A stretch of DNA of 64,000 nt from Gammaproteobacteria bacterium (lineage in GTDB: Bacteria; Pseudomonadota; Gammaproteobacteria; Ga0077536). Positions 3,579-34,669 of this stretch are shown piece after piece. The first letter of the stretch is position 1; each line of letters starts with the position of its first letter. Under the pieces are notes generated by a model. That model saw only the letters and a program-made list of their open reading frames with translations. It made no database searches and was not told the origin of the DNA. The DNA lies in the NCBI GenBank assembly GCA_038116745.1, contig JAYODW010000008.1, positions 25,094 through 89,093 of the forward strand, given 5' to 3'. The translations under genes were made by a program, and so were the position numbers.

Positions 3579-5771
3579 TCAGGGCTCGCGCACGCGCCCC
3601 AGCAGCCGCAGCAGGTCCTCGTGCATCTCGAACCACACCGTGTGGTAACTCGGCACGCGCACGCCGCTCATGAAATCAAGGTCGCCATCCAGAACGCGGT
3701 CGTAGGCTGCTTCCAGGAGCTCTCCATAAACCCCGAGACGCGTCTCAAAGCTGGCGAAGCCGGCCAGGATGGGCGCTGCGCGATCGTGCAGCGCACCAAG
3801 CTCGTCCACGATCCGCGCATCGTAATCCGCGTCGCTGTGGTCATTCGGCACCGAGCTGCCGCCGACATCCATGGTCTGCCAGCGGGTCATCAGTACCAGC
3901 AGCTGGCGGTTTACGACTTCGAAACGGTCATATGCAGCGCCAAAATCCTCAGTCGCACGATGCGCGGCATAAAGCGCGGGATACAGCCGCTCGAGAGCGT
4001 CGCGCCCCGCCGGCGTGACCACGAACCGCCCGGCTGACGCGACCGCCAGCCCCATGGCCTCAATGCGGACCATCGCAGCTGCGGCCGCCGTCCCGTCCAG
4101 TCGGAGCAGGGCTGCCACCTCCTCCAGCGTCGCCGACTTTTTCACCGCCAGGCCGTGCAGCACGAGAAAATCCGGATCGTCACTCGTCTGCGCCTGCAGT
4201 TCAGGCTGCTCGGAAGCCGCGCGGATCGCATCGATGTCGGCACGGGTGACACTCGACCCCCGGCCCTCGAGATTCCGCGAGCCGCGCTGGTCGAGCCGGT
4301 ACAGCGCATCTGCCAGGGGGCTCCCGGCATTGCTACGCACCCAGGCATCATCGAGAAAACGATAAGGCGCCTGACAGACACTGGGCACAAACTCAGCCGC
4401 AGCCGCGTTGTAGTCGGCAAGACTCAGCCTGCCGCGTGTCGTGAGATAGGTGCCGCGCTTGGGTTCCAGCGACGTCGAGCCAGGGCGCAGCGGGCCGGAG
4501 CTCAGCGTGTAGTGCTCATCCTGCAGCACGCTGTAGGGCACCGGGCTCCACATGTCCCCCGGGGCATCGGCCCATTTGCTCATGCTGTAAGCGGATCCCT
4601 GCTGCGACGGCAGACTGATGTAGCCCAGGAGCTCAGCCAGAAAATCCCGCGCGTACTCGTCATTCAGCAGCGGCTTGATGCGCTGCGCGCGGGGATCGAG
4701 CGTGAACCAGTCGTCGGGCTCGTACAGTCCGGCAACGTGGAACAGATCCTTGGCCACCGCGGCGTAAATCATCGCGCCGGCATCGATCATCTGATCGCGC
4801 GTCCACCCCGCCATGCGCTTCCATAGCTCACGTGTGGCCTCACTCAGAATCGCGCCCTCATGGTCGAGGAACTCAGCCAGGGTCGCAGCGTTGTCCATGG
4901 CCACAGGGATCTCCCCGTCACTGAGGAAATCTGAGGTATACAGGCCGACCGCCACGACATTGTCGTGCTCGAAAGCGGGCGTGGCCTCGAAGCTCGCCCA
5001 GTCGTCAACGATGTTGAAGTGCGTGTCTTTGACGATGGTCGGGATGGTCAGGTTGTTGTGCGTGACGCGTCCGGCGATACCGTCCAGCCACGGCAGGTCG
5101 CACTCGCCCATGTCGACAAAGCCCCGCACCAGCATCTCTTCGTGAGGCCGGCAGCGATACGGCCCGTGATTCCAGATCCCCAGGCGCGACTCACAGTGCG
5201 ACAGCAGCGCGAATTGATTGGCGGTCGACATGAATTTTTTCAACGCGGTGTGCAGCCGATCGCCCGGTCGCATAGCGATCGCGTCGGCCTCGAACACCTG
5301 CAGGCGGCGCTCCGGCAGGATCTGGGCGCGCAGATTGCTGTCGGATGGCAGCACGTGGGCGTGGTTACGGTGATAGGCAAGATTTACCCGCTCGGCGAAG
5401 TCCTCGACGAAAACCAGATCATCGAGCGCATCGGTCGGCCGCAGCAGTCCGAACTCGATCAGTGTCTGGCGTCCGGCCAGATAAAACTCCGGTACGCAGG
5501 AGAGACTGATGATGTCGCCCTTGGTCGAGGTCTCCCGCAGGCGGTCCCCGATCTCTTCCGGGCTCATGCGCGCCGCCAGACGGCGCAGCAGTTCGGGATA
5601 GCGGTAGAAGGCCTGCAGGTAGGACACCACCATGTAAGCCGGCACCGGGAAGAGCTTCGACTCCTGCACCGTGCGCGTACTGCAGTGGAAAAACCAGGTG
5701 TCCGCGTTCTTGCGTATCCAGGCGTTCAGCCGGAGCAGATCGGTGTAACCGTGACCGTGCGTAGCCCTCAT
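3579..5771 (-). CDS. Unknown ~510-aa domain fused to a C-terminal wHTH + Rv1126c-like domain
   Basis: 730-aa ORF overlapping the upstream gene by ATGA. The C-terminus (VLHGLAVKK...NDHSDADYD...LH...SYHTVWFEMHEDLL) resembles the small proteins encoded next to truncated actinobacterial ppdK. Confidence 0.75.
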   Translation of the reverse strand: MRATHGHGYTDLLRLNAWIRKNADTWFFHCSTRTVQESKLFPVPAYMVVSYLQAFYRYPELLRRLAARMSPEEIGDRLRETSTKGDIISLSCVPEFYLAGRQTLIEFGLLRPTDALDDLVFVEDFAERVNLAYHRNHAHVLPSDSNLRAQILPERRLQVFEADAIAMRPGDRLHTALKKFMSTANQFALLSHCESRLGIWNHGPYRCRPHEEMLVRGFVDMGECDLPWLDGIAGRVTHNNLTIPTIVKDTHFNIVDDWASFEATPAFEHDNVVAVGLYTSDFLSDGEIPVAMDNAATLAEFLDHEGAILSEATRELWKRMAGWTRDQMIDAGAMIYAAVAKDLFHVAGLYEPDDWFTLDPRAQRIKPLLNDEYARDFLAELLGYISLPSQQGSAYSMSKWADAPGDMWSPVPYSVLQDEHYTLSSGPLRPGSTSLEPKRGTYLTTRGRLSLADYNAAAAEFVPSVCQAPYRFLDDAWVRSNAGSPLADALYRLDQRGSRNLEGRGSSVTRADIDAIRAASEQPELQAQTSDDPDFLVLHGLAVKKSATLEEVAALLRLDGTAAAAAMVRIEAMGLAVASAGRFVVTPAGRDALERLYPALYAAHRATEDFGAAYDRFEVVNRQLLVLMTRWQTMDVGGSSVPNDHSDADYDARIVDELGALHDRAAPILAGFASFETRLGVYGELLEAAYDRVLDGDLDFMSGVRVPSYHTVWFEMHEDLLRLLGRVREP

Positions 5772-6472
5772 GGCAGCTTCCAGACCCGCGCTCGCCCGAG
5801 GCCATCAGCGTCTTCGTAGGGTGGTTTAGCCGCAACGCTGTACTCAACCTGCACGCTATCGCCGTCGGCGATCCCCGCAACCTCGGCCGCCATCAGGCAG
5901 GGGATCTGATACTCGCGCGTCAGGATTCCGAGATGCGACCGCACCGAGCCACCGCGACAGACCACGGCGGTGAAGCCCTCCAGGATCGGTGCGGTCAGCG
6001 TTCCGCCTGAATCGTCAATGATGGCCACAGTGCCTGGCGGCACCCCGTTGGTCAGGTAGTCCATCACTTTCTCCACGCTGCTGATGAGGCGCGCGGTGCC
6101 GATGATGTCCTCCCGGCAATGAAACACGTTGTCGCCCTGTCCCGCGAGCAGGCGTCCTTCAGCATCCGCCGGCAGGTCATCCGAGAGCGCTGCAGTGGCA
6201 CGCACCGCGTACTTGTGCGGCGCCTCGGCGACAGAGATCCCGGCCGACATCTCGAATCGTTCGCCTGTCGCCAGAAATTCATCCTCGAGACCCTGAAAGT
6301 CCGCGGCGGACAATTCGAGTGCGGCCTCGAAGACCATCTCTTCCCAGGTTCTGCCGCTTTCCGCCAGACGCGCCGCCGCGATCTCCCGGATGCGACGGTG
6401 ATAGAACGCCACCGTGCGGAACTGCGGCGGTGCACCCCATTTATTCAGCGTCCCAGGATCTATCTCAGACAT
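5768..6472 (-). CDS. Stand-alone PEP-utilising enzyme mobile (phospho-histidine swivel) domain protein
   Basis: GGTLTAPIL...AVVCRGGSVRSHLGILTREYQIPCLM matches the GGxxSHxxIxxRExGIP motif, with the His conserved. No ATP-grasp domain and no PEP-binding barrel. Confidence 0.85.
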   Translation of the reverse strand: MSEIDPGTLNKWGAPPQFRTVAFYHRRIREIAAARLAESGRTWEEMVFEAALELSAADFQGLEDEFLATGERFEMSAGISVAEAPHKYAVRATAALSDDLPADAEGRLLAGQGDNVFHCREDIIGTARLISSVEKVMDYLTNGVPPGTVAIIDDSGGTLTAPILEGFTAVVCRGGSVRSHLGILTREYQIPCLMAAEVAGIADGDSVQVEYSVAAKPPYEDADGLGRARVWKLP

Positions 6473-12942: not shown

Positions 12943-13980
12943 TTACAGCGCCGAGACGATCTCAGCCAGGACGTCGCGGTCCTCCCCGGACACTACCGGG
13001 ATGCTGACCTCCACCCGGTCGATCAGGTCGCCGTAGCGTTCGCGCAGACTGGCCGCCAGCTCTTCATAGCGGGCAACGACGACCCATTCGTGCAGCACCT
13101 CGTCGTCAACCAGCGCTGCCATCTCAGACCAGCGCTGAGCTTTGGACAGACGACTCATTTCAGCCGCCAGGTCGCCCAGTCCGACCCGCTCGAAAGGCGC
13201 GCGATAAGCTGGCGTGCTGACATAAAAAGCGAGGCGTTGGCGGGCGAATTCAACCCGGGAAGCCAGAGTCGCCTCGTCTGCAGCGGTTGCAATGAGGGGT
13301 TTCAGACAGACCTCAAAAATTTGCCTGTCGGCGCGCTTTGCCGCGATCGCCGGATGAACAACATCACGGATGTAACGCGCTGAGCACACCGGATGCAGCC
13401 GCACACCGTCTGCCACCTCCGCCGCGACCCCGCACATGTACGGATTAACAGCCGCCATCAGGATCGGGATCTGCGGACACTCGATAGGTGCGGGCGTAAA
13501 CAGCGGTACGGAAAGGTTGAGTTTGAAGTAGCGGCTCTCAAACTCGAGCTTTTTCCCGGCCTGCCAGCTCTGCCAGATGGCGCGCACCGCATTAATGTAG
13601 TCACGCATCCACGGGCCCGGCGGATGCCATTCCATACCGAAACGACGCTGCACGTGTCCACGCACCTGGGTGCCAAGACCAAGCTCAAAACGACCGTGTG
13701 AGATCTTCTGCAGGGTCCAGGCGGACATCGCCGTCACGTAAGGACTCCGCGCGAATGCGATCGCAACGGACGTCCCCAGGTGGACCCGGCGGCTATGGCA
13801 TGCCGCCAGCGCCAGCACCGGAAAAGGGTCGTCCTTGGTCTCCTCCATGAGCAGCCCGTGGTAGCCGAGGTCGTCAACCAGCGTCGCATCAGCGGGCACC
13901 TGATCGAGGTTCAGTGGCGCTTCGGGGACAGCCAGCCCCGGATCCAGCTTGCCGAGAGGTAACAGAGTTTCTGCTTTCAT
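12943..13980 (-). CDS. LLM-class (putative F420-dependent, TIGR03617-like) oxidoreductase
   Basis: EETKDDPF, GTSVAIAFARSP, GRFELGLGTQV and AFYVSTPAY motifs. Confidence 0.85.
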   Translation of the reverse strand: MKAETLLPLGKLDPGLAVPEAPLNLDQVPADATLVDDLGYHGLLMEETKDDPFPVLALAACHSRRVHLGTSVAIAFARSPYVTAMSAWTLQKISHGRFELGLGTQVRGHVQRRFGMEWHPPGPWMRDYINAVRAIWQSWQAGKKLEFESRYFKLNLSVPLFTPAPIECPQIPILMAAVNPYMCGVAAEVADGVRLHPVCSARYIRDVVHPAIAAKRADRQIFEVCLKPLIATAADEATLASRVEFARQRLAFYVSTPAYRAPFERVGLGDLAAEMSRLSKAQRWSEMAALVDDEVLHEWVVVARYEELAASLRERYGDLIDRVEVSIPVVSGEDRDVLAEIVSAL

Positions 13981-14037
13981 CTTGTCGGTATCTCGCGCGT
14001 CGAGAGGTAGTGGCCCATCACGAGCGCGAGATGCTCG

Positions 14038-16530
14038 CTAGAGACGGATACGGACGCCTACCCAGCCTGCCACAGGCGCGCCGGCACCGAGGAAAATCGG
14101 GCTTGTGTTGGCCAGCCCGGGGATCACCTCTGAGGGATCTTCCCCAATCAGTCCAAAGCTCTCGTAATCCTTGTCGAACAGATTGGTCACCTTGGCGAAA
14201 ACTTCCAGGCGATCGTTGTGCCGGTAAGCGCCGCGCAGATTGACTACGGCGTAGCCGGGAATTTCGTCGAGCTGGTTCGACTCATCGCCACGCAGGTACT
14301 GGCCCGAGTTGTAAAGCAGCTCGACCCCGAATCGGAATTTTTCCGTAAGAGCGTAGTCCGTGTTCACTTTGAGCTGATGATCAGACACACCGGGTATGCG
14401 GTCGCCAGCTTCCACCGCCAGCTCACCCTCTGCGTCGGCGAACGGATGGTTCGGACTGAGGACCTTGAAGTCGTCTTCGAAAGTGGCGCGGATATAGCTG
14501 TAGGCGAGCGACCAGTCCAACGCGCCGAATTCTCCGGCAAACGCGGATTCAAAGCCCTCGCGCCGGGTCTCATCAACATTGGCGAACAGTCCCGTGCCGC
14601 GCCCGGTGGTCTGAAAAATGATGTCGTCCTTATTGTTGGTCCTGAAATAACCCAGGCGATGAGAGATGCCGCTCCACTCGCCGCGGATCCCGAGCTCGAA
14701 GCTTTTGGCGATCACATCATCGAGCGGCGGGTCTGCCAGAAACGCATTGGGCAGGCGGCACTCGAGATCGATATCGTTGGGGTCCTCGCCCTCGGCAATT
14801 GCGTTCGCTCTGGCCTGTGAGAACACGCCCTCGTTGCACGCGAGCTCTATCGGTGTCGGCGCGCGCGACGACTCGCTGTAGCTGCCATAGGCGTTCAGGC
14901 CCTCGGCGACGTCAAAGGTCAGACCGGCGGTGGGATTTAACCTCGAAAAATGGTGGTCGCCGTTCAGCTCCGGCCGTTCCCCGGAGCGGTCGCGAAGCTT
15001 GACCCGGGTATCGTTCAAACGGCCGCCTACCGTAATCGTCAGTCGCTCGGTCAAATCAAAGGCATCGAGCACATAAGCGCTCCAGGAGCGGGTTGAAGTC
15101 GAGACATCGGTTGCTTCTTCGTCGACAAAGGTGCCGACGCCGAGCCCGAAGGTACTGCGCGTCGCCGGGTCCAGGAGCGCGAGCTCGGTCAGCGATTCAA
15201 AATCGGCCTCGCCTTTGAAATAGCTGCCGCCGAGGACGAAATGGTTCCCCCGCCCCAGGATGCGCCCCTGGTAGGTCAGGTGCAGGTCGAATCCGTGCGC
15301 GTCCTGATCCCGTTTGGAGGTGTTATTGATCGCCTCATCACTCAAGACGCCGGTACCGCTGAGCTCATCCGCGCTCAGCTCATCCAGTGAAAAGAGGTCT
15401 TCCCCGGCGAGGGCATTCAGCGCGGCTTCGAGCTGGTCAACATCCGCCACGCCGAGACTGTTCTGCTCGCAGACATCATCTTCATCCAGTCCGAGCTCTT
15501 CGAGATCATCCTCTTCCAGTCCCTCCAGCAAAGCTTCACCGCTGCTGAGATCGCAGATCGAGAATTCAGAGCTGTCGCCGTTGAAGGATTCCGTGTCGGT
15601 AGCCCGGTAGAAGCCATTCAGGTCAACGCTGAGTTCGTCGCTGAAGCTGAATTCGCCCGCCACCGTGCCCATGTAGAGCTCGTTCTCGGTGATATCGGGG
15701 ACCGTGAACACGCCGTCCCGGTCCACCTCAAGCAGGCCGGCCGGCGCCGGTCCGTTGCCGCGCAGCTCAGAGTTACCGTACTGAAAAGTGGCGTCCAGAA
15801 GAGCGCGCTCCCCCCGGAAGCTGGAGCTGGCGAAGACGTTCAGCGCATCGGAATCGGACGATGCGCGCCAGCCGTCCTCTTCGAAATAGCTCACATTGAC
15901 GTAGTAACCGAGCGAACCGTTGTTACCACCGCTTTCCGCGCTCGTCGTCACGCGTTCCCACGCACCGCCGGATGCTTCGACCTGATGGCCTTCGAAGTTG
16001 AAGCCGTTTTTCATGTCGATGACCAGAGCGCCGCCCAGGGTGTTCAGACCGAACAGCGGATTGCTGCCCCCGACCAGATTCAGGCTGTTGATAGCGGACT
16101 CCGGCAGCAGATCCCAGTTCACCGCATCGCCCAGCGGCTCGTTAACCCGGGCACCGGACTGGTAGACCGCAATACCCTGCGCCAGGCCGAGCAGCGGTGA
16201 GACGGCGTAGCCGCGATACTGCACATCCGGCTGCAGCGGGTTGTTCTGTGCCGAGTTAATGCTGACGCTGCCCAGCTGCGCGTTCAGGAAGTCAGTCAGG
16301 TCGAGGGCGTTTGAACGCTCGAGGGCGTCCGCGTCAGCCGATTGCACGCTGTAGGGCAGTTTGTCCGCCACCATTCCAGGACCGCCTCCAGGGGTCGGCG
16401 CGACAATCAGAATCTCCTCATCAAAACCCGCACCCTCAGCGCACAGACCTGACTGCGCAAGGCCAGCAAAAAGTAAAGCGAAAATGCCCCGGATGCGGCG
16501 GGTGGCAGAGGGCGTTAATAAAACGGTCAT
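14038..16530 (-). CDS. TonB-dependent outer-membrane receptor
   Basis: Signal peptide, plug motifs (NPLQPDVQYRG, GSNPLFGLNTLGGAL), RAPTPIEL, and C-terminal NLFDKDY...GVRIRL. Confidence 0.92.
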   Translation of the reverse strand: MTVLLTPSATRRIRGIFALLFAGLAQSGLCAEGAGFDEEILIVAPTPGGGPGMVADKLPYSVQSADADALERSNALDLTDFLNAQLGSVSINSAQNNPLQPDVQYRGYAVSPLLGLAQGIAVYQSGARVNEPLGDAVNWDLLPESAINSLNLVGGSNPLFGLNTLGGALVIDMKNGFNFEGHQVEASGGAWERVTTSAESGGNNGSLGYYVNVSYFEEDGWRASSDSDALNVFASSSFRGERALLDATFQYGNSELRGNGPAPAGLLEVDRDGVFTVPDITENELYMGTVAGEFSFSDELSVDLNGFYRATDTESFNGDSSEFSICDLSSGEALLEGLEEDDLEELGLDEDDVCEQNSLGVADVDQLEAALNALAGEDLFSLDELSADELSGTGVLSDEAINNTSKRDQDAHGFDLHLTYQGRILGRGNHFVLGGSYFKGEADFESLTELALLDPATRSTFGLGVGTFVDEEATDVSTSTRSWSAYVLDAFDLTERLTITVGGRLNDTRVKLRDRSGERPELNGDHHFSRLNPTAGLTFDVAEGLNAYGSYSESSRAPTPIELACNEGVFSQARANAIAEGEDPNDIDLECRLPNAFLADPPLDDVIAKSFELGIRGEWSGISHRLGYFRTNNKDDIIFQTTGRGTGLFANVDETRREGFESAFAGEFGALDWSLAYSYIRATFEDDFKVLSPNHPFADAEGELAVEAGDRIPGVSDHQLKVNTDYALTEKFRFGVELLYNSGQYLRGDESNQLDEIPGYAVVNLRGAYRHNDRLEVFAKVTNLFDKDYESFGLIGEDPSEVIPGLANTSPIFLGAGAPVAGWVGVRIRL

Positions 16531-28170: not shown

Positions 28171-28507
28171 GCCACGATGTGTCCTGATCCCCACTGCAAT
28201 GGGGTCGCCAGAAAACCCGCCTTTCGAGCGCGATGCAGCGCAGTGCCAGCTAAGTTTCGGCCTCTCGTCGGGCTTCCTGAATGGGTCGGCTGTTCAGCAG
28301 CAACGCAACTGTCATCCGCCAGGATAGCGCTGGCTGAAACTCGTCGCACCCGATGAAGACGCCCGCCAAAGAACGCTCGCCACGATCGCGATAGCGCCCA
28401 CAGCTCCGCACCGCGCCCTTTGCAGGTAAGTCATGCGCCCGACTATCAATGCCGCTTTCCCTTTACCGAAGAGACACGGACTGATTCAAAAAACACGGGA
28501 GACCCGC

Positions 28508-30250
28508 ATGAGACCCGCCAGGTACCGTGCTGCAATGGCCCAGTGGCTGCTGCTGGCTCTCCTGCCGTGGGCCGCTGCGGCCGCCGATCTCCCGGGTTCT
28601 GCCAGCGCAGGCCAGATCGAGAGACGCTTCGAGCGGACACCGGAGGCGCGGTCCAGCTCCCGACCGTTCGGGATCCCGTCGACGAGCGTTAACGCGGCGC
28701 CCGCCGGTTCCGAAGACATCCGCTTCACCCTGTCCCGGGTCGACTACGACGGCGCCACCGCCTTTTCCAGCGCCGATCTGGCGGCACTGCACGCCGATCT
28801 GCTCGGCAAGGAAATCGCTTTGACCCAGGTTTATGCGCTCGCTGATGCCGTTACACGTCTCTACACCGGAGCCGGCTATCTGCTCAGCCGCGCGGTGGTG
28901 CCCGACCAGGTCATCGAAAACGGGCAGGTCCGACTGCAGGTCGTTGAAGGTTACGTCGACTCCGTAAACGTTGATGGGCTGGAAGGCATACGACCCGGCA
29001 TATTCGAACATCACATTGGAAAGTACCCCGAACCCAAGGTCTATGAACTGGGCATAAGACCGGGTTTGTTCGAGAACTACATTGCGCGGATCAAGGCCAG
29101 TCGGCCGCTTCATCGCGCCGTTCTGGAACGCTACCTGCTGCTGATCAACGATATCCCCGGGATGCACTTCAAAGCGGTCCTCGGCCCTTCCGACAAAGGC
29201 ATCGGTGCAACGATTCTGACCCTCACCGCAGCCCGCGAGCGATGGTCGGGAGCGCTCAGCTTCGACAACCGTGGTGCGAAAACGAGCGGCCCGTGGCAGG
29301 GAATGATCGAACTGACCGGAAACAACTTGTTAAACCTGCTCGACAGCACCACCTTGCGCTATGCGACCGTTCCGGATGATCCGCAGGAACTGCACTACTG
29401 GGCGGTCAGCCATCAGCAGCTGCTCTCACACGAGGGGCTGCGCCTGAACCTGGAATTCAACGGCGCCTACAGCGAACCGGGCTCTGAGCTGTTCGAGCAG
29501 CTGGAAGCCAAGACCAGCGCCCTTAGTAGTGGGTTCAATCTGAGCTATCCGTTTATCCGCTCCCGCACCCGCAACCTGACCCTCAGCGCCGGAGCCGCGC
29601 TGAGGGACTCCAAGGTCAAGCTGCTCGGCAGCACTGCGTCAGAGGACGATCTGACGGTCCTCTCGGTCGGCGCGAGCTTTGACCAGGCAGACGCCCTGGC
29701 CGGCGGCGGGGTGACCCTGCTGTCCGCCACGCTGAGTCAGGGACTGGACGTTCTGGGCGCGGACGTCACCAGTCGCGCCGAGGCAGACCCGGATTTCACC
29801 GTCGTGTCCCTGTATGCCTGGCGTTCTCAAAGCGTGACGGACAGGCTGCGTGCAGAGCTGCGCCTCGAGGGTCAGCTGACGGGCCAGAGCCTGCCCTCTA
29901 TCGAACAAGCGGGCCTTGGCGGCGAATTCAGCGTGCGCGGCTTTGAGCCCTCCGAATGGACGGGGGACCGGCTTTTCAACGCGTCGTTTGAACTCGTTTA
30001 CAACCCCGACGTTCCCTTGATCCCGACTGCGGAGCTCTACGGCTTTTACGACTACGGGAAAATCTGGCGGGAGGATGCACAGATCGGGGAGGACAGCTCA
30101 GATTCAGCGGATTCCGCCGGGCTTGGCACGCGGTTACAACTGACCCACGGGCTCGGAGTGAACCTGGAAGTGGCGCGCGCCCTGAGTGACGACAGCGAGG
30201 GTGATTCTCCAGGCTGGGAGCTCTACGTCCGCTTCCGCGGAGAGTTCTGA
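28508..30250 (+). CDS. ShlB/FhaC/HecB family two-partner secretion transporter (TpsB)
   Basis: Signal peptide, POTRA motif (Y...GYLLSRAVVP.Q...G.V.LQVVEG), DNRG, VRGF motif and a terminal Phe. Start uncertain. Confidence 0.92.
   Translation: MRPARYRAAMAQWLLLALLPWAAAAADLPGSASAGQIERRFERTPEARSSSRPFGIPSTSVNAAPAGSEDIRFTLSRVDYDGATAFSSADLAALHADLLGKEIALTQVYALADAVTRLYTGAGYLLSRAVVPDQVIENGQVRLQVVEGYVDSVNVDGLEGIRPGIFEHHIGKYPEPKVYELGIRPGLFENYIARIKASRPLHRAVLERYLLLINDIPGMHFKAVLGPSDKGIGATILTLTAARERWSGALSFDNRGAKTSGPWQGMIELTGNNLLNLLDSTTLRYATVPDDPQELHYWAVSHQQLLSHEGLRLNLEFNGAYSEPGSELFEQLEAKTSALSSGFNLSYPFIRSRTRNLTLSAGAALRDSKVKLLGSTASEDDLTVLSVGASFDQADALAGGGVTLLSATLSQGLDVLGADVTSRAEADPDFTVVSLYAWRSQSVTDRLRAELRLEGQLTGQSLPSIEQAGLGGEFSVRGFEPSEWTGDRLFNASFELVYNPDVPLIPTAELYGFYDYGKIWREDAQIGEDSSDSADSAGLGTRLQLTHGLGVNLEVARALSDDSEGDSPGWELYVRFRGEF
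28985..29084 (+). repeat. Imperfect tandem duplication (66-bp period) inside tpsB
   Basis: ggcatacgacccggcatattcgaacatcacattg (28985) versus ggcataagaccgggtttgttcgagaactacattg (29051), encoding GIRPGIFEHHI / GIRPGLFENYI. Confidence 0.8.
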
Positions 30251-30520
30251 CCGCACGCCACTCGCGCTACCGGCACGTCCACTGGAGGCGCACTACCAGA
30301 GGAGCAAGCAGAGGGTAAACGGAAACGGCGCAGGAAACCCTGATGTGGCAGGGCGAAGGCTTGCGGTCTAGGCTTTCGATCTGGAGACACGCAGCCTGGA
30401 GCGCTTGCGCGACGTTGCGGTGACCTATAAGCAAAGCCGCATCGACGAGCGAGGGCTGCGATAGCGCGCGCCGCAAGACGGGACCAGCTCCGGGCGTGTA
30501 CGGCCCGAGGAGTCAACACA

Positions 30521-33500
30521 ATGAGCATCAGTTTTAGAAGGTTTGAACGAGCGCCGGCGACACCCGCTGACAGGAGACATCCCCCGCGGGATCAAACGGC
30601 ATTAACTCGGGGCCCCGGCGAAGCATCATTTGTTATTTCAGGCCTCTTCATATTGCTGTTGCTGTTGCCGTTGCCGTCGTTAGCCAATCCGGAGGGCGGC
30701 CGGGTCGCAGGGGGTAACGCCAGCATCTCCAGCCAGGCGCAGACGCTGACGGTCAACCAGCATACCGACAAAGCCGTTATCAACTGGCAGAACTTTTCCA
30801 TCGGCGCCGACGAGACCACGCGCTTCGTCCAGCCCTCAAAAAGTGCCGTCGCGCTCAACCGGGTGGTCACAACTCAGCCCAGCGCAATCTTTGGCGCACT
30901 GGAAGCCAACGGCCATCTCTTTGTCGTGAATCCCAACGGCGTGGTCTTCGGACAGGGGTCCCGGATCGATGTGAACGGGCTGGTCGTGAGCACGCACGAT
31001 ATCTCCGACACCAACTTCATGCGCGGGGATTTCCGTTTCGATATACCCGGACGAGCAGACGCCGAAATCTTCAATCAGGGCGAGATCAGCGTTGGGGATG
31101 CCAGCCTCGCCGCTTTTGTCGCCCCCACAGTCCGCAACGACGGCATCATTCAGGCCCGACTAGGGAAGGTCGTGCTGGCCGCGGGCACGGGCTTCGCCCT
31201 CGATCTGTACGGCGACGGGCTACTGGAGCTACAGGTCGAGGAGGAACACGTCGACGAAATGCTGCGGGTAGAACACACCGGCCTCATCGAAGCCGAGAGC
31301 GTTCTGCTCACCGCCGGAACCGCGCGCAGGGTGGTCGACAGCGTGATTAACCTCAGCGGCAGCGTGCAGACTCGGACCGCACGGCAGGAGGGAGGCCGCA
31401 TCGTTATCGGCGGCAGCACCGGAGTCAGTACGGATATCAACATCAGCGGAACGCTGGACGCGGCGGGCTCGGACGGCACCAACACCGCCGCTGGCGGCGA
31501 AATCCTGGTCGCTGGCGGCGGCAAGGTGAACCTGCATGATGCCCGTCTCGATGTATCCGGCACCGGAAGCGGCGGCAGTATCTCCGTCGCCGGCGCAACA
31601 GCGGCCGGCGGCTCGACCGTCTTACTCAGCGGACAAAGTCAGCTTCTGGCAGACGGCGCAGCCGGCACCGGCGGGCAGGTGACGGTCACTGGCTACCACA
31701 CCGGTCTAACCGATACGACCCGGATCAACGCCACCGGCGCGAGCGGCGGCGGTCTCGCTCAGATTGGCGGCAGCTGGCAGGGTAGCAATCCAGAGGTTCC
31801 CGCGGCGACCGCGGTCTATGTCGGCCCGGATGTGGTCGTGGATGCATCCGCAGGCGCGCGCGGAGACGGCGGCACAATCGCAGTCTGGTCTGACGTCACC
31901 GACCAGAACTCATCCACCCGCGCGTATGGCGCACTTTTCGCCCGGGGCGGAGAGTTTGGCGGCAACGGCGGCGCAGTGGAAACCTCGGGCAGTTGGCTCG
32001 ATGCGGCCGGGATCACCGTCGACGCGGCGGCGCCGGCTGGTGAGAGCGGACTCTGGCTGCTCGATCCGCTGGACCTCTATGTGACCACTGCACCCACGAC
32101 CGCCCCGACGTCTATACCTGCGCCCGGAGATACCCTGTTCACGCCGGTCGCGGGCCAGAACAACGTCCTGAACACGGATATCGAGAACCAACTGGATGCA
32201 GGCACGAACGTCGTGCTGCAGACGATCGGCTCAGCCGGTGCCGAGAGCGGCAGCATTTACGTCAATGCAGACATTACCAAGAGCGGTGGAGCCCCGGCCT
32301 CCCTGGTTCTGGAAGCGGCAGGAAGCATCATTGTTGACGACAACGTTTCCGTTTGGTCTATCAACAACTCGCTTGACCTGCTGCTGCTTGCCGGCGGCGA
32401 TATTGCGCTCAAAAACGGCTCGAGCATTAACAGCAACGGCGGCATCGTCAGTCTGGACGGGCAAGGCATAACCCTCGACGGAACAATCGCTGGCGGCCAG
32501 GTAAGCCTCAGCGCAGCGATAGGAAATACGATCAGCGGCAGCGGAGGTATCGCGGCAAACGAACTGCTGGTTCTTGGGCCGTCATCCATCGAACTGAACA
32601 CAACAGCTGCCAACAATGTCGACATCCTGACAGCGGCTGGCGTGAACAGCGTGAGCTTCAGCAACGGCACCGCGTTGACTATCTCCGCCATCAGTGCGGC
32701 GGGCACAATCCAGGTATCCACCAATTCGGGTAATTTGATTGTTTCCGGAGACGTGATCACGACTGACGCGTCTGTTGGAGCCATCTCGCTCATCGCGGGG
32801 CAAGGCAGGCTTGCCGGAGATGCAGCCGGCGGCGACATCATCATCTCCGGGACGCCGACCCTCACGACCGGCGCCGGCGGCAGCATCCTGCTTTACACCG
32901 GCAGCATCAATGACAGCACAGGCCTCACCGAGCTGGTGGGCAGCGGTAGTCAGCGGTTCCGCTACAACGCCGACGAGAATACGAATTTTTCGGCCAGCGG
33001 CTGGCTCGATGTCGCAGCACCCGGGCTCTACGGCATCTATCGTGAGCAACCGCAAGCGTCGATTACGCAAATCAACAGCCAGAGCATGACCTACGGTGAT
33101 GCCATCCCGGTTCTGTCGGGGACGGCGGCCGGTCTGGTCAACGGCGACCTGCCCAATTACGCCGTTGGCGCGCCCGTATTTTCGGGTTCCGGCAACCTTG
33201 CGGTAATCGGCAGCCCCTACAGCGTCGGTGAGACTGCCCTGGCAGCGCTGGGTTACAGCGTTTTTACCAGCGCCCCTGGTGGACTGACGGTCAACCCGCT
33301 CACCCTGACCCTGACCGGTTTCGCGGTCCAGCCGGTCAAACCCTACGACGGCACGACAACCGCGGCGATCACCAATGTCGGCCGTTTCGCCGACCTCATA
33401 GCAGGCGATTCGGTCAGCTCCGGCAATGCGGGGGCGACCTATGACACGCCTGAAGTCGGCGGAAACAAGCTGGTCACCCTGAACGAACTGTCCCTCAGCG

Positions 33501-34669
33501 GGGAAGATGCTTCGAATTACGTCGTCGCCGGCCCCGCCACCACGACTGCGGCGATATCGGCGATCAATTCCGGGCCATTGGTCGTCGACATAGTCACCGG
33601 AGAGGACAACGCGGCGGAGCCTGAAGACTCGTCGGATGCAGACGTGGACGACGGTCCGCTGACGCCGGAGAAAGTGGCGCGCATGACACCGGAGCAGATC
33701 CGGCGGATCAAACCCAATCAGATCCACAACATGGACGCCGCAACCGCACGCGCGTTCAAACCCTTCCAACTGAAGGCCTTCACGACCGGTCAGGCCGACG
33801 CCCTCAAACCCGACCACTTTCAGCAGTTCAGCGGGGACCAATACAGGGGCTTCGCTGACGGATTCGTGGAGCTGAAGGACGAGCAGGTGGCAAGTCTGAT
33901 GCCGCCGGAAGCCAAAGGTGCGCTAGTGCGACTCGCGGTGTACTCGCGTAACGAACTTGATCCCGCCGAAATTGCCCGCGACGAGGACGCCCGCGAGCTG
34001 GCCTGGCGCATGGGCGAATTCACTCGCCAGCTGCAGCGGTCGGAAGAACTGAATGCTCAGGCGGCGCTGCTTCCCTGGAATCCTACGCTTGCGGCAATGA
34101 GATACGGTCGCTGGCCGCTGCTCCCCGGCATGCAGTTCGGCGCCATGCGGGTCGGGCTATTTGATTTCGGCGAAGAACCCCTGGTCGAACTGGCGGCGAG
34201 TGTCGGAGAGTTTTTTGCCGAAACCAAGGGCGAGAAGATTTTCAATGGTGCGATGACCTTTTTCGCCGGCAACCGCGCACTGGCCAGTAAGGCCGCCCGC
34301 ACAATGCTGACCGTGGCGCCGGTGATCGGCAATGTGCTGGCGCTCTACACAGTCATCTCGGGGAAGAGTCCGTTCACCGGGGAAGATGTCAGCGAGCTCG
34401 AGCGGTCACTGTGCGTGCTTGGGACGCTGCCCGGCGCAGGGGCCTTGCTGAAAATCGCAGGAAAAGAAAGCGCCGCAGTGGTGCGCAACCTCATTACCCA
34501 AGGCCAGAAGCTGCATCTGGAAAAGGTTGAGGACGTCGGCGAGACGACCAATCACATCATGGAGATCCTGGACACCACGGCTGCGCAAAGCGCCATCGCA
34601 GCCGGGGGCCGTCAGATCGAACAGCTGGCAGAAGCGCTGCTGCGTCCCTTCCTCAAAGCGGCTGCCTGA
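30521..34669 (+). CDS. TpsA filamentous-haemagglutinin-family exoprotein with YDG domain and C-terminal pre-toxin TG-like domain
   Basis: Signal ...SLA|NPEGG, INWQNFSI, NPNG TPS motif, Gly-rich beta-helix region, WLLDP, KPYDGTT (YDG), and APVIG...SGKSPFTGE near the C-terminus. Confidence 0.9.
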   Translation: MSISFRRFERAPATPADRRHPPRDQTALTRGPGEASFVISGLFILLLLLPLPSLANPEGGRVAGGNASISSQAQTLTVNQHTDKAVINWQNFSIGADETTRFVQPSKSAVALNRVVTTQPSAIFGALEANGHLFVVNPNGVVFGQGSRIDVNGLVVSTHDISDTNFMRGDFRFDIPGRADAEIFNQGEISVGDASLAAFVAPTVRNDGIIQARLGKVVLAAGTGFALDLYGDGLLELQVEEEHVDEMLRVEHTGLIEAESVLLTAGTARRVVDSVINLSGSVQTRTARQEGGRIVIGGSTGVSTDINISGTLDAAGSDGTNTAAGGEILVAGGGKVNLHDARLDVSGTGSGGSISVAGATAAGGSTVLLSGQSQLLADGAAGTGGQVTVTGYHTGLTDTTRINATGASGGGLAQIGGSWQGSNPEVPAATAVYVGPDVVVDASAGARGDGGTIAVWSDVTDQNSSTRAYGALFARGGEFGGNGGAVETSGSWLDAAGITVDAAAPAGESGLWLLDPLDLYVTTAPTTAPTSIPAPGDTLFTPVAGQNNVLNTDIENQLDAGTNVVLQTIGSAGAESGSIYVNADITKSGGAPASLVLEAAGSIIVDDNVSVWSINNSLDLLLLAGGDIALKNGSSINSNGGIVSLDGQGITLDGTIAGGQVSLSAAIGNTISGSGGIAANELLVLGPSSIELNTTAANNVDILTAAGVNSVSFSNGTALTISAISAAGTIQVSTNSGNLIVSGDVITTDASVGAISLIAGQGRLAGDAAGGDIIISGTPTLTTGAGGSILLYTGSINDSTGLTELVGSGSQRFRYNADENTNFSASGWLDVAAPGLYGIYREQPQASITQINSQSMTYGDAIPVLSGTAAGLVNGDLPNYAVGAPVFSGSGNLAVIGSPYSVGETALAALGYSVFTSAPGGLTVNPLTLTLTGFAVQPVKPYDGTTTAAITNVGRFADLIAGDSVSSGNAGATYDTPEVGGNKLVTLNELSLSGEDASNYVVAGPATTTAAISAINSGPLVVDIVTGEDNAAEPEDSSDADVDDGPLTPEKVARMTPEQIRRIKPNQIHNMDAATARAFKPFQLKAFTTGQADALKPDHFQQFSGDQYRGFADGFVELKDEQVASLMPPEAKGALVRLAVYSRNELDPAEIARDEDARELAWRMGEFTRQLQRSEELNAQAALLPWNPTLAAMRYGRWPLLPGMQFGAMRVGLFDFGEEPLVELAASVGEFFAETKGEKIFNGAMTFFAGNRALASKAARTMLTVAPVIGNVLALYTVISGKSPFTGEDVSELERSLCVLGTLPGAGALLKIAGKESAAVVRNLITQGQKLHLEKVEDVGETTNHIMEILDTTAAQSAIAAGGRQIEQLAEALLRPFLKAAA
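33659..33850 (+). repeat. About eight 8-residue protein repeats in TpsA
   Basis: LTPEKVAR MTPEQIRR IKPNQIHN MDAATARA FKPFQLKA FTTGQADA LKPDHFQQ FSGDQYRG. Position 1 is hydrophobic and position 5 is often Q. Confidence 0.65.

Follow-up and report, generated by a model that had tools for sequence, protein, structure and literature searches.

A candidate split small-molecule dikinase in a gammaproteobacterial carboxylase operon, combining a swivel protein, an unassigned domain and an Rv1126c-type domain

HpeHI is a two-component small-molecule dikinase in which a swivel shuttles between an ATP-grasp protein and a substrate domain; substitution of the swivel histidine abolishes activity, and HpeH alone catalyses phospho-exchange (PMC12167813). 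The Hpe/Acv order is a kinase, a carboxylase built from biotin carboxyl carrier protein (BCCP), carboxyltransferase (CT) and biotin carboxylase (BC), a phosphatase and a CoA synthetase, and the Hpe carboxylase takes the phosphorylated ketone only (PMC9618137); bioRxiv 10.1101/2022.04.28.489975 gives the same pathway precedent. The kinase step can be replaced by the non-homologous MarK (PMC12624787). VadK of Mycobacterium tuberculosis autophosphorylates His422 with ATP/Mg, and its operonic partner Rv1126c raises its solubility on co-expression, the two being separated by a 2 M NaCl wash; the authors read VadK as a regulatory histidine kinase tuning the methylcitrate cycle (PMC13400623). Here we describe two coupled genes, encoding a 234-residue swivel protein (P0002) and a 730-residue two-part protein (P0001), in a biotin-carboxylase operon of a Gammaproteobacteria bacterium (GenBank assembly GCA_038116745.1). 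The operon lies in a 64,000-nucleotide stretch of contig JAYODW010000008.1, hereafter the window.

On the strength of sequence and structural models, we give about an even chance to the reading that P0002 and P0001 are together the acceptor half of a small-molecule dikinase split into four modules. P0002 would be a permanently docked phospho-carrier, its N-terminal region clamping the large protein while its swivel presents His180. The first ~525 residues of P0001 (N-dom) would be a new-fold catalytic domain holding the second substrate, a catabolic intermediate to which His180~P hands its phosphate. The C-terminal domain (C-dom) would act as an adaptor, recruiting a VadK-like truncated pyruvate, phosphate dikinase (PPDK) encoded on another contig, C11, that has an ATP-grasp domain and a swivel His of its own; ATP would be the phosphate source, with His180 charged either from His to His or directly. 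Once phosphorylated, the product would go on to the co-encoded biotin-dependent carboxylase (BC, BCCP and PycB-like CT) as its substrate, in the phosphorylate–carboxylate order of the Hpe/Acv/Xcc ketone pathways. Domain content, conservation, synteny, gene fusions and a predicted interface containing His180 carry this reading.

The swivel protein and its partner domain

The two reading frames overlap by ATGA, which holds the stop codon of the 234-residue frame and the start codon of the 730-residue frame. P0002 contains the motif SHLGILTREYQIP, and P0001 contains RTVQESKLFPV, SHCESR, HGPY, NDH and SYHTVWFEMHE; frames, coupling and motifs are as the original prediction gave them. Its assignment of P0002 as a swivel is borne out by a match to Pfam PF00391 at 26 bits (gathering cut-off 23.1, residues 147–209), with swivel paralogues elsewhere in the genome scoring 29.1 and 30.5 bits. 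R178-S179-H180 is invariant in 24 of 24 aligned swivel homologues, and H180 (codon 5933–5935) is the presumed phospho-histidine. It falls in register with the TSH histidine ('...GGSTSH...') of the genome's VadK-like protein (hhalign E 4.5e-4, probability 33%).

P0001 is made of two parts, as proposed, with limits that alignment refines to residues ~1–525 and ~540–730. The larger part had been called an unassignable domain of ~510 residues, and every search has left it so. P0001 matched no Pfam or NCBIfam family and merely two rows among PDB sequences (E 0.63 and 1.9), and the N-dom profile matched no PDB sequence. AlphaFold2 modelled N-dom with pLDDT 86 and pTM 0.88, the least confident loops (34–37 and 256–266) being the most conserved motifs. 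Foldseek placed nothing from the PDB below E 0.1 (best E 0.1, TolC-like noise), VIA-align against 48,161 representative chains gave a best Z of 3.5 with no RPH row, and the best ESM Atlas score, 0.81, is under the level of meaning. Models lacking a clear match typically reach Z 7–8 in VIA-align and 525 residues exceeds its reliable scan size, so the result is no detectable known fold, not a proven new fold. The idea that N-dom is a diverged PpsA/HpeH substrate domain found no support, hhalign giving a probability of 0.4% against the genome's own PpsA-like protein.

About 100 columns of N-dom are invariant in 36 sequences, among them R33, Q36, E37, K39, H134, R135, E194, R196, D256, D257 and E262. 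Of 8,000 candidates scored in searches with P0001, 508 proteins matched at E up to 0.001, most of them from Actinomycetota, ~510–545 amino acids (aa) long and aligning to the first ~70% of the query only. A minority (720–734 aa) is fused like the query; the closest fused forms come from gammaproteobacterial metagenome-assembled genomes (MAGs) at 72–79% identity, and a second group lies at 45–50%. The last ~190 residues, searched alone at the same threshold, found 624 proteins, mostly stand-alone and 200–205 aa long. Because each part finds its own homologues alone, N-dom and C-dom are separate evolutionary units, joined in P0001. Against 1.84 billion representatives (50% identity), the N-dom profile gave 490 matches at E up to 0.001, many of them fragments, with 322 at E up to 1e-10 and 95 at E up to 1e-30; a shorter subfamily of ~370–390 aa spans profile positions ~10–370.

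A scan of species-representative genomes confirmed 377 stretches encoding an N-dom relative, hosted by Pseudonocardia, Nocardioides, Blastococcus, Acidithrix, Nanopelagicales, Solirubrobacterales and alpha-, beta- and gammaproteobacteria. Eighty loci were kept as a synteny sample; 37 of them, here called well flanked, extend 8 kb or more to either side. N-dom is directly preceded by the swivel gene in 78 of the 80 (36 of the 37); of the other two, L048 lies at a contig edge and L029 may be a fusion. With a swivel adjoining in 78 of 80 loci and 377 stretches in all, the pairing is far beyond chance. Single-chain forms also exist: in P0306 (516 aa) and P0368 (575 aa), an N-dom-like region follows a PF00391 domain close to the N-terminus. 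The genome itself encodes a further pair on contig C22 (L091), where swivel, N-dom and C-dom share 44–48% identity with those of the window and neighbour an SDR, a Y_phosphatase3 phosphatase and hydantoinase A/B. A remote third pair on contig C18, a 151-aa swivel and a 470-aa N-dom-like protein (hhalign 99.35%, E 6e-21), belongs to a module (L092:4615-9634, +) of DUF7064/7065 protein, HAD hydrolase, swivel, N-dom-like protein and LigXa-like Rieske oxygenase.

Other associations were seen around these pairs. An Rv3169/DUF7065-type protein accompanies the module on C18, in the window and in L082/pRB98. The hydantoinase A/B genes near the C22 module (L091:1528-5420) are of the acetone-carboxylase/oxoprolinase family, a second type of ATP-dependent ketone- or lactam-activating enzyme near the module; HydA-like matches occur at 15 of the 80 loci (13 of the 37), mostly in Solirubrobacterales. 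On plasmid pROB02 of Rhodococcus opacus B4 (L114, 7359-9740), part of a 793-aa 'PEP-utilizing enzyme' resembles N-dom (24% identity). Its flanks encode two APH/ecdysteroid-kinase-like phosphotransferases, a tyrosine-protein phosphatase, an acetate–CoA ligase family protein, alcohol and aldehyde dehydrogenases, a P450 and a divergent 'pyruvate, phosphate dikinase'.

The complex of N-dom (alignment A2) with the swivel protein (alignment A4) was predicted in three runs, alongside three controls. ipSAE was 0.85, 0.88 and 0.85, against 0.00 for the best control; 116 of 157 solved complexes attain the mark set on this score, as do 2 of 215 mismatched pairs, a calibration that is rough here, custom alignments having been used. 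At least 73% of contacts agree between runs, and partner pLDDT is at least 83. Most contacts join residues 9–88 of the swivel protein to N-dom residues 106–111 and 361–394. The swivel itself, through residues 153–165, 174–176 and 178–180, contacts N-dom 33–44, 193–196 and 260–266, which are the invariant RTVQESK, CESR and SFE motifs. The N-dom positions of these motifs within the interface include 33–34, 36–44, 193–194, 196, 260 and 262. R178-S179-H180 is placed against RTVQESK and CESR, giving the interface that the original prediction had asked for. These models support P0002 as a docked carrier with His180 reaching a conserved N-dom pocket. Recall of a memorized structure is unlikely to explain the prediction, since solved complexes like it were not found by Foldseek, VIA-align or PDB profile searches.

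The Rv1126c-type domain and the candidate ATP-grasp partner

C-dom is modelled (AlphaFold2, pLDDT 92.8) as a MarR-like winged helix–turn–helix (wHTH) followed by a four-helix bundle. The wHTH finds matches at Z ~10, with a root mean square deviation (RMSD) of 0.8–1.3 Å over ~60 residues, and the bundle finds generic ones; Foldseek returned weak wHTH matches only. Invariant histidines of the bundle lie in N-D-H, S-Y-H and H-E. Its model residues 62–188 align with the CheA HPt domain 1tqg (Z 9.5, RMSD 3.0 Å, 100 residues), a score below the meaningful level for bundles, and with many unrelated bundles matching we do not claim an HPt-like phospho-carrier role.

The original prediction likened C-dom to Rv1126c. 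We pursued this in 151 genomes of the Mycobacteriaceae family, which holds Skermania. There, 50 genomes have a C-dom match and 18 a VadK-like match at E up to 1e-30, 17 of these 18 also having a C-dom match. The genome G126 encodes, in order, a PE-PGRS protein, a WS/DGAT-like protein (427 aa), a 201-aa protein, a PPDK_N plus swivel protein, a DUF222 protein (453 aa), an amine oxidase and a PrpR-like regulator (HTH_3/Peptidase_M78/ScfRs, 485 aa). By its gene order we take this locus to be the probable counterpart of H37Rv Rv1125, Rv1126c, ppdK/Rv1127c, Rv1128c and prpR/Rv1129c, and use it as a proxy for the M. tuberculosis protein. The 201-aa product, encoded directly downstream of the PPDK_N plus swivel gene, matches the C-dom profile over 191 columns (hhalign 99.85%, E 7e-31) and keeps the N-x-H-x-D-x-x-Y-D and SYHTVWFELHE motifs. 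C-dom probably belongs to the Rv1126c-type family, judged by its homology to this proxy, and the likeness holds. G126 yielded no N-dom with the N-dom query used.

The VadK-like and C-dom matches share one open frame in two of the 151 genomes, as VadK-like::C-dom fusions of 759 aa (G075) and 934 aa (G093). An apparent 735-aa fusion in Solirubrobacterales (L057) proved on a frame check to be an over-extended reading frame across two adjacent genes. The search with a Rhodococcus-type C-dom homologue had no M. tuberculosis protein among its best 120 matches, and weak C-dom matches (E ~1e-10) in three Mycobacteriaceae genomes lie beside aldehyde dehydrogenase, AMP-ligase or MFS genes, not PPDK. Two loci of this family (L107:6563-9928 and L110:5799-9061) have 235–238-aa members of the C-dom family adjoining full-length genes of the PPDK/PEPS type (849–877 aa, swivel plus PEP-utilizers_C), the L110 pair overlapping by 4 nucleotides, with aldehyde dehydrogenase and acyl-CoA dehydrogenase in the flanks. 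Complete dikinases thus also have an Rv1126c-type protein as a partner.

That C-dom begins with a wHTH invites a different interpretation: VadK-like kinase, swivel and N-dom::wHTH protein could form a regulatory phosphorelay that senses metabolite or energy state and controls the carboxylase operon or its enzymes, P0001 being a sensor/regulator. The VadK-like plus C-dom pair of G126, found without N-dom, suits such a relay, as does the regulatory view taken by the VadK authors (PMC13400623). We nevertheless find it improbable. The invariant N-dom columns are rich in Arg, Lys, His, Asp and Glu, fitting an active site; the module is translationally coupled and set among catabolic enzymes; and several clusters have regulators of their own (GntR in L017, an HTH regulator in pRB98). 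C-dom is moreover fused to enzymes, N-dom here and VadK-like proteins in G075 and G093, and the reported co-purification of Rv1126c with VadK suggests that the wHTH serves protein–protein contact (PMC13400623).

The preferred reading, with P0001 and P0002 as an acceptor half, calls for an ATP-grasp partner. The window's contig has no PPDK_N domain, the genome's sole matches being on C11, C14 and C30. The search for a truncated PPDK elsewhere in the genome, which had been suggested, led to its only VadK-like gene: on C11, encoding 596 aa with PPDK_N and a swivel, beside BCCP, BC, PycB-like CT and thiolase genes. There is no C-dom at this locus. The earlier statement that the module has no ATP-grasp partner is correct for the window and its closest relatives but fails for the family at large. 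By tblastn, the method behind all cluster gene counts below, a VadK-like gene is present at 57 of the 80 loci and 33 of the 37, and a C-dom gene at 60 and 35. Four well-flanked loci lack a VadK-like gene: L012 and the window's three closest fused-form relatives (L009, L011 and L022). Where that gene is gone from the cluster, C-dom is thus joined to N-dom.

Where the gene has stayed, it keeps close company with C-dom. A PPDK_N plus PF00391 protein without PEP-utilizers_C (Pfam) adjoins the C-dom gene in five clusters, from Pseudonocardia (L019), Skermania (L082), Blastococcus (L033), Nocardioides (L017) and a Solirubrobacterales MAG (L057), which also have an AMP-binding ligase and thiolases. 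Plasmid pRB98 of Rhodococcus oxybenzonivorans encodes, in RefSeq terms, a 'PEP-utilizing enzyme' (183 aa), a hypothetical protein (525 aa), an AMP-binding protein and a hypothetical protein (202 aa), continuing with a 'pyruvate, phosphate dikinase' (579 aa), a biotin protein, biotin carboxylase, carboxyltransferase, OB-fold protein, thiolase and tyrosine-protein phosphatase. Among the papers listed on R. oxybenzonivorans and benzophenone-3, none deals with this cluster. The PPDK_N match on C14 belongs to another pair (L090:9076-12038, −), a 568-aa PpsA/HpeH-like protein with a C-terminal swivel and then a 419-aa PPDK_N::cyclic-nucleotide-binding protein, which has no link to the window operon. 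It adjoins a LuxR-type response regulator, and a cyclic-nucleotide domain on an ATP-grasp dikinase subunit is unusual.

The want of an ATP-grasp gene in the cluster, in this genome and in L009, L011 and L022, could also mean that none is needed. N-dom would then bind phosphoenolpyruvate (PEP) or an acyl- or enol-phosphate and charge His180 itself, as a self-contained unit with C-dom and the VadK-like protein as acceptors or unrelated neighbours; Enzyme I of the phosphotransferase system is an example of a swivel His that receives its phosphate from a donor other than ATP. This we hold to be very unlikely, for N-dom has no similarity to the PEP-utilizers_C TIM barrel (Pfam), the VadK-like gene is a member of nearly all well-flanked clusters, as counted above, and a domain of VadK-binding type is fused to N-dom in exactly the loci from which the VadK-like gene has moved away.

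The carboxylase operon and the proposed acceptor reaction

The module sits within a block of ten co-directional genes, running crotonase b, CT b, Rv3169-family, BCCP, BC, swivel, 730-aa protein, crotonase a, CT a and APH (Table 1). By Pfam and NCBIfam these supply a three-part biotin carboxylase (BC, BCCP and two PycB-like CTs), the BCCP retaining a VMKL biotinylation motif. The CT copies share 74% identity and the crotonases 30%; the position of crotonase b is kept in L009, L010, L011 and L022.

Table 1. Coordinates and annotation of the module and the surrounding gene block in the window
Feature	Length	Position	Strand	Annotation
APH-family small-molecule phosphotransferase	346 aa	121..1161	−	Pfam PF01636, E 2.9e-29; last gene of block
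PycB/OadA-like CT, copy a	487 aa	1189..2652	−	Pfam HMGL-like + PYC_OADA; NF006761, E 9.5e-91
Crotonase-family enzyme, copy a	301 aa	2655..3560	−	Pfam ECH_1
P0001, two-part protein	730 aa	3579..5771	−	
C-dom of P0001 (~540–730 + stop codon)	~190 aa	3579..4154	−	MarR-like wHTH + four-helix bundle, Rv1126c type
N-dom of P0001	~525 aa	4197..5771	−	Unannotated family; proposed phospho-acceptor/substrate domain
P0002, swivel protein	234 aa	5768..6472	−	~1–120 docking region; ~147–209 PEP-utilizers mobile domain
BC	459 aa	6500..7879	−	Pfam CPSase_L_D2, Biotin_carb_N, Biotin_carb_C
BCCP	163 aa	7876..8367	−	TIGR00531, 117.5 bits (cut-off 115.2)
Rv3169-family/DUF7065 protein	371 aa	8370..9485	−	NCBIfam NF053593, 253.5 bits
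PycB/OadA-like CT, copy b	504 aa	9504..11018	−	Pfam HMGL-like + PYC_OADA; NF006761, E 1.5e-91
Crotonase-family enzyme, copy b	274 aa	11071..11895	−	Pfam ECH_1; first gene of conserved block

Among the relatives, an AMP-ligase is present at 63 of the 80 loci (36 of the 37 well-flanked), a carboxyltransferase at 49 (28), BC at 29 (19), BCCP at 30 (19), any thiolase at 45 (29) and a Y_phosphatase3 or His_Phos_1 phosphatase at 37 (23). The enzyme set around N-dom—ligase, thiolase, SDR, phosphatase and BC/BCCP/CT—mirrors that of Hpe/Acv, and on this ground we propose that the module may phosphorylate a catabolic intermediate ahead of carboxylation. The original prediction had N-dom as a new substrate-binding or phospho-acceptor domain with its His charged in trans; computation favours this.

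Phosphate could also run the other way. N-dom would take a phosphoryl group from an intermediate to His180, from which it would pass through the VadK-like protein to ATP or be released, so that the module replaces a phosphatase; the phosphorylated intermediate could come from the operon's APH-family kinase or remain after carboxylation. PPDK-type chemistry is reversible, and the window operon has that kinase and no recognised phosphatase. HpeH alone moves phosphate between phospho-product and substrate, as PMC12167813 describes. Most relatives, however, hold module and phosphatase together, which argues against a general replacement, and APH-like genes are found at just 9 of the 80 loci. We allow this reverse flow a slim chance only. 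The probability that remains, after these three alternatives and the forward reading, we leave to something not thought of.

Several points weigh against forward transfer through a split dikinase. To our knowledge, two swivel histidines in one system (VadK-like and P0002) are without precedent in PPDK, PEPS, RPH or HpeHI. The window operon, scanned with Pfam and NCBIfam, has no VadK-like gene, CoA ligase, thiolase or recognised phosphatase and offers instead two crotonases, an APH kinase and an Rv3169-family protein; with this different gene content, its chemistry may differ from that of the actinobacterial clusters. Carboxylation is not a universal feature, 18 of the 37 well-flanked loci having neither BC nor BCCP, and the BC/BCCP/CT set is likened to HpeCBA/XccBCA at the level of Pfam/NCBIfam family only. 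The swivel-family profile had 0 matches to PDB sequences at E up to 0.01. The swivel loop, C-x-G-G-[ST]-x-R-S-H, departs from the canonical T/S-x-x-G-G-x-x-x-H given for HpeH in PMC12167813: in the register set by the TSH histidine, Cys stands at the T/S position and G-[ST] at the GG position, and P0002 is thus a divergent swivel. The mycobacterial authors, finally, see VadK as a regulatory kinase and not as part of a catabolic enzyme (PMC13400623).

Elsewhere in the window, a luciferase-like monooxygenase and a TonB-dependent receptor are encoded just upstream of the operon on the same strand (12943-16530, −), each present in 0 of the 80 related loci. A two-partner secretion pair (28433-34669, +) joins a 605-aa transporter of the ShlB/FhaC type to an exoprotein of 1382 aa that has TPS, YDG and C-terminal PT-TG pre-toxin domains, and looks like a contact-dependent-inhibition-like polymorphic toxin locus.

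Relation to described dikinases and carboxylase pathways

Swivel-His dikinases are known in principle; what would be new is the kind of acceptor domain, the division into four parts with two swivels, and the presence of an adaptor. Open-access full texts gave no account of a swivel protein, N-dom and Rv1126c-type adaptor together in a carboxylase cluster. If the proposal is true, swivel-His dikinases, so far known with a PEP/pyruvate TIM barrel, an RPH/HpeH helical domain or the Enzyme I C-terminal domain, would gain in N-dom a fourth kind of second-substrate domain, with a fold not seen in the PDB. Two unannotated families, N-dom and the Rv1126c-type domain, would gain a function, and for VadK, a tuberculosis virulence kinase, the partner would gain a testable role, docking. 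There would also be an uncharacterised phosphorylation-dependent carboxylation route in soil and freshwater Actinomycetota (Solirubrobacterales, Nanopelagicales, Pseudonocardia and Rhodococcus) and several Pseudomonadota.

A bolder extension is possible but doubtful. N-dom would found a new-fold class of phospho-His-dependent phosphotransferases, VadK/Rv1126c, so far described just as an orphan 'regulatory' kinase in M. tuberculosis, would by origin be its ATP-charging module and docking adaptor, and Rv1126c-type proteins would be general adaptors of truncated PPDK to interchangeable acceptors; the acceptor of VadK in mycobacteria would then be something that Rv1126c recruits.

HpeHI, AcvAB, CreHI and PpsAB resemble the present system in that the ATP-grasp protein is apart from the protein or proteins bearing the swivel His and the second substrate site (PMC9618137, PMC12167813 and bioRxiv 10.1101/2022.04.28.489975). 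N-dom, however, has no detectable relation to HpeH or to the rifampin-binding domain of RPH, as judged by the hhalign comparison and fold scans above. The swivel here occupies a polypeptide of its own, the ATP-grasp protein has a second swivel, an Rv1126c-type adaptor domain is added, and the substrate need not be a phenol. Those dikinases, too, have genes nearby for a biotin carboxylase of three parts (HpeCBA, AcvCDE or XccBCA), for a phosphatase and for an AMP-forming CoA ligase, and the carboxylase needs a phosphorylated substrate; the kinase parts in our clusters are of other families than the PpsAB type, and the phosphatases of well-flanked relatives are Y_phosphatase3 or His_Phos_1, whereas HpeD is HAD. 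MarK (UPF0261), an acetovanillone kinase, is a precedent for a non-homologous kinase replacing HpeHI/AcvAB before a like carboxylase operon, although it is a direct ATP-dependent kinase without phospho-His and is unrelated in sequence (PMC12624787).

VadK (Rv1127c) and Rv1126c also share parts with the present module: a truncated PPDK without the PEP/pyruvate domain and a ~200-aa protein of the C-dom family bind tightly, and the His is autophosphorylated (PMC13400623). The Mycobacterium-type locus of G126 has neither N-dom nor a stand-alone swivel, and the mycobacterial pair is taken to be regulatory. In the gammaproteobacterium, a putative enzyme bears the Rv1126c-type domain as a fusion, and a second BCCP–BC–CT–thiolase set adjoins the VadK-like gene. 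RPH follows a common logic of ATP-grasp domain, swivel His and non-TIM-barrel helical substrate domain, but it is a single-chain enzyme of antibiotic resistance, not of catabolism, with one swivel and another fold in its substrate domain. With PPDK and PEP synthase the present system shares PPDK_N, the ATP-grasp domain, and a PF00391 swivel bearing a catalytic His; it differs from both in lacking the PEP-utilizers_C TIM barrel (Pfam) and in distributing its modules over three proteins.

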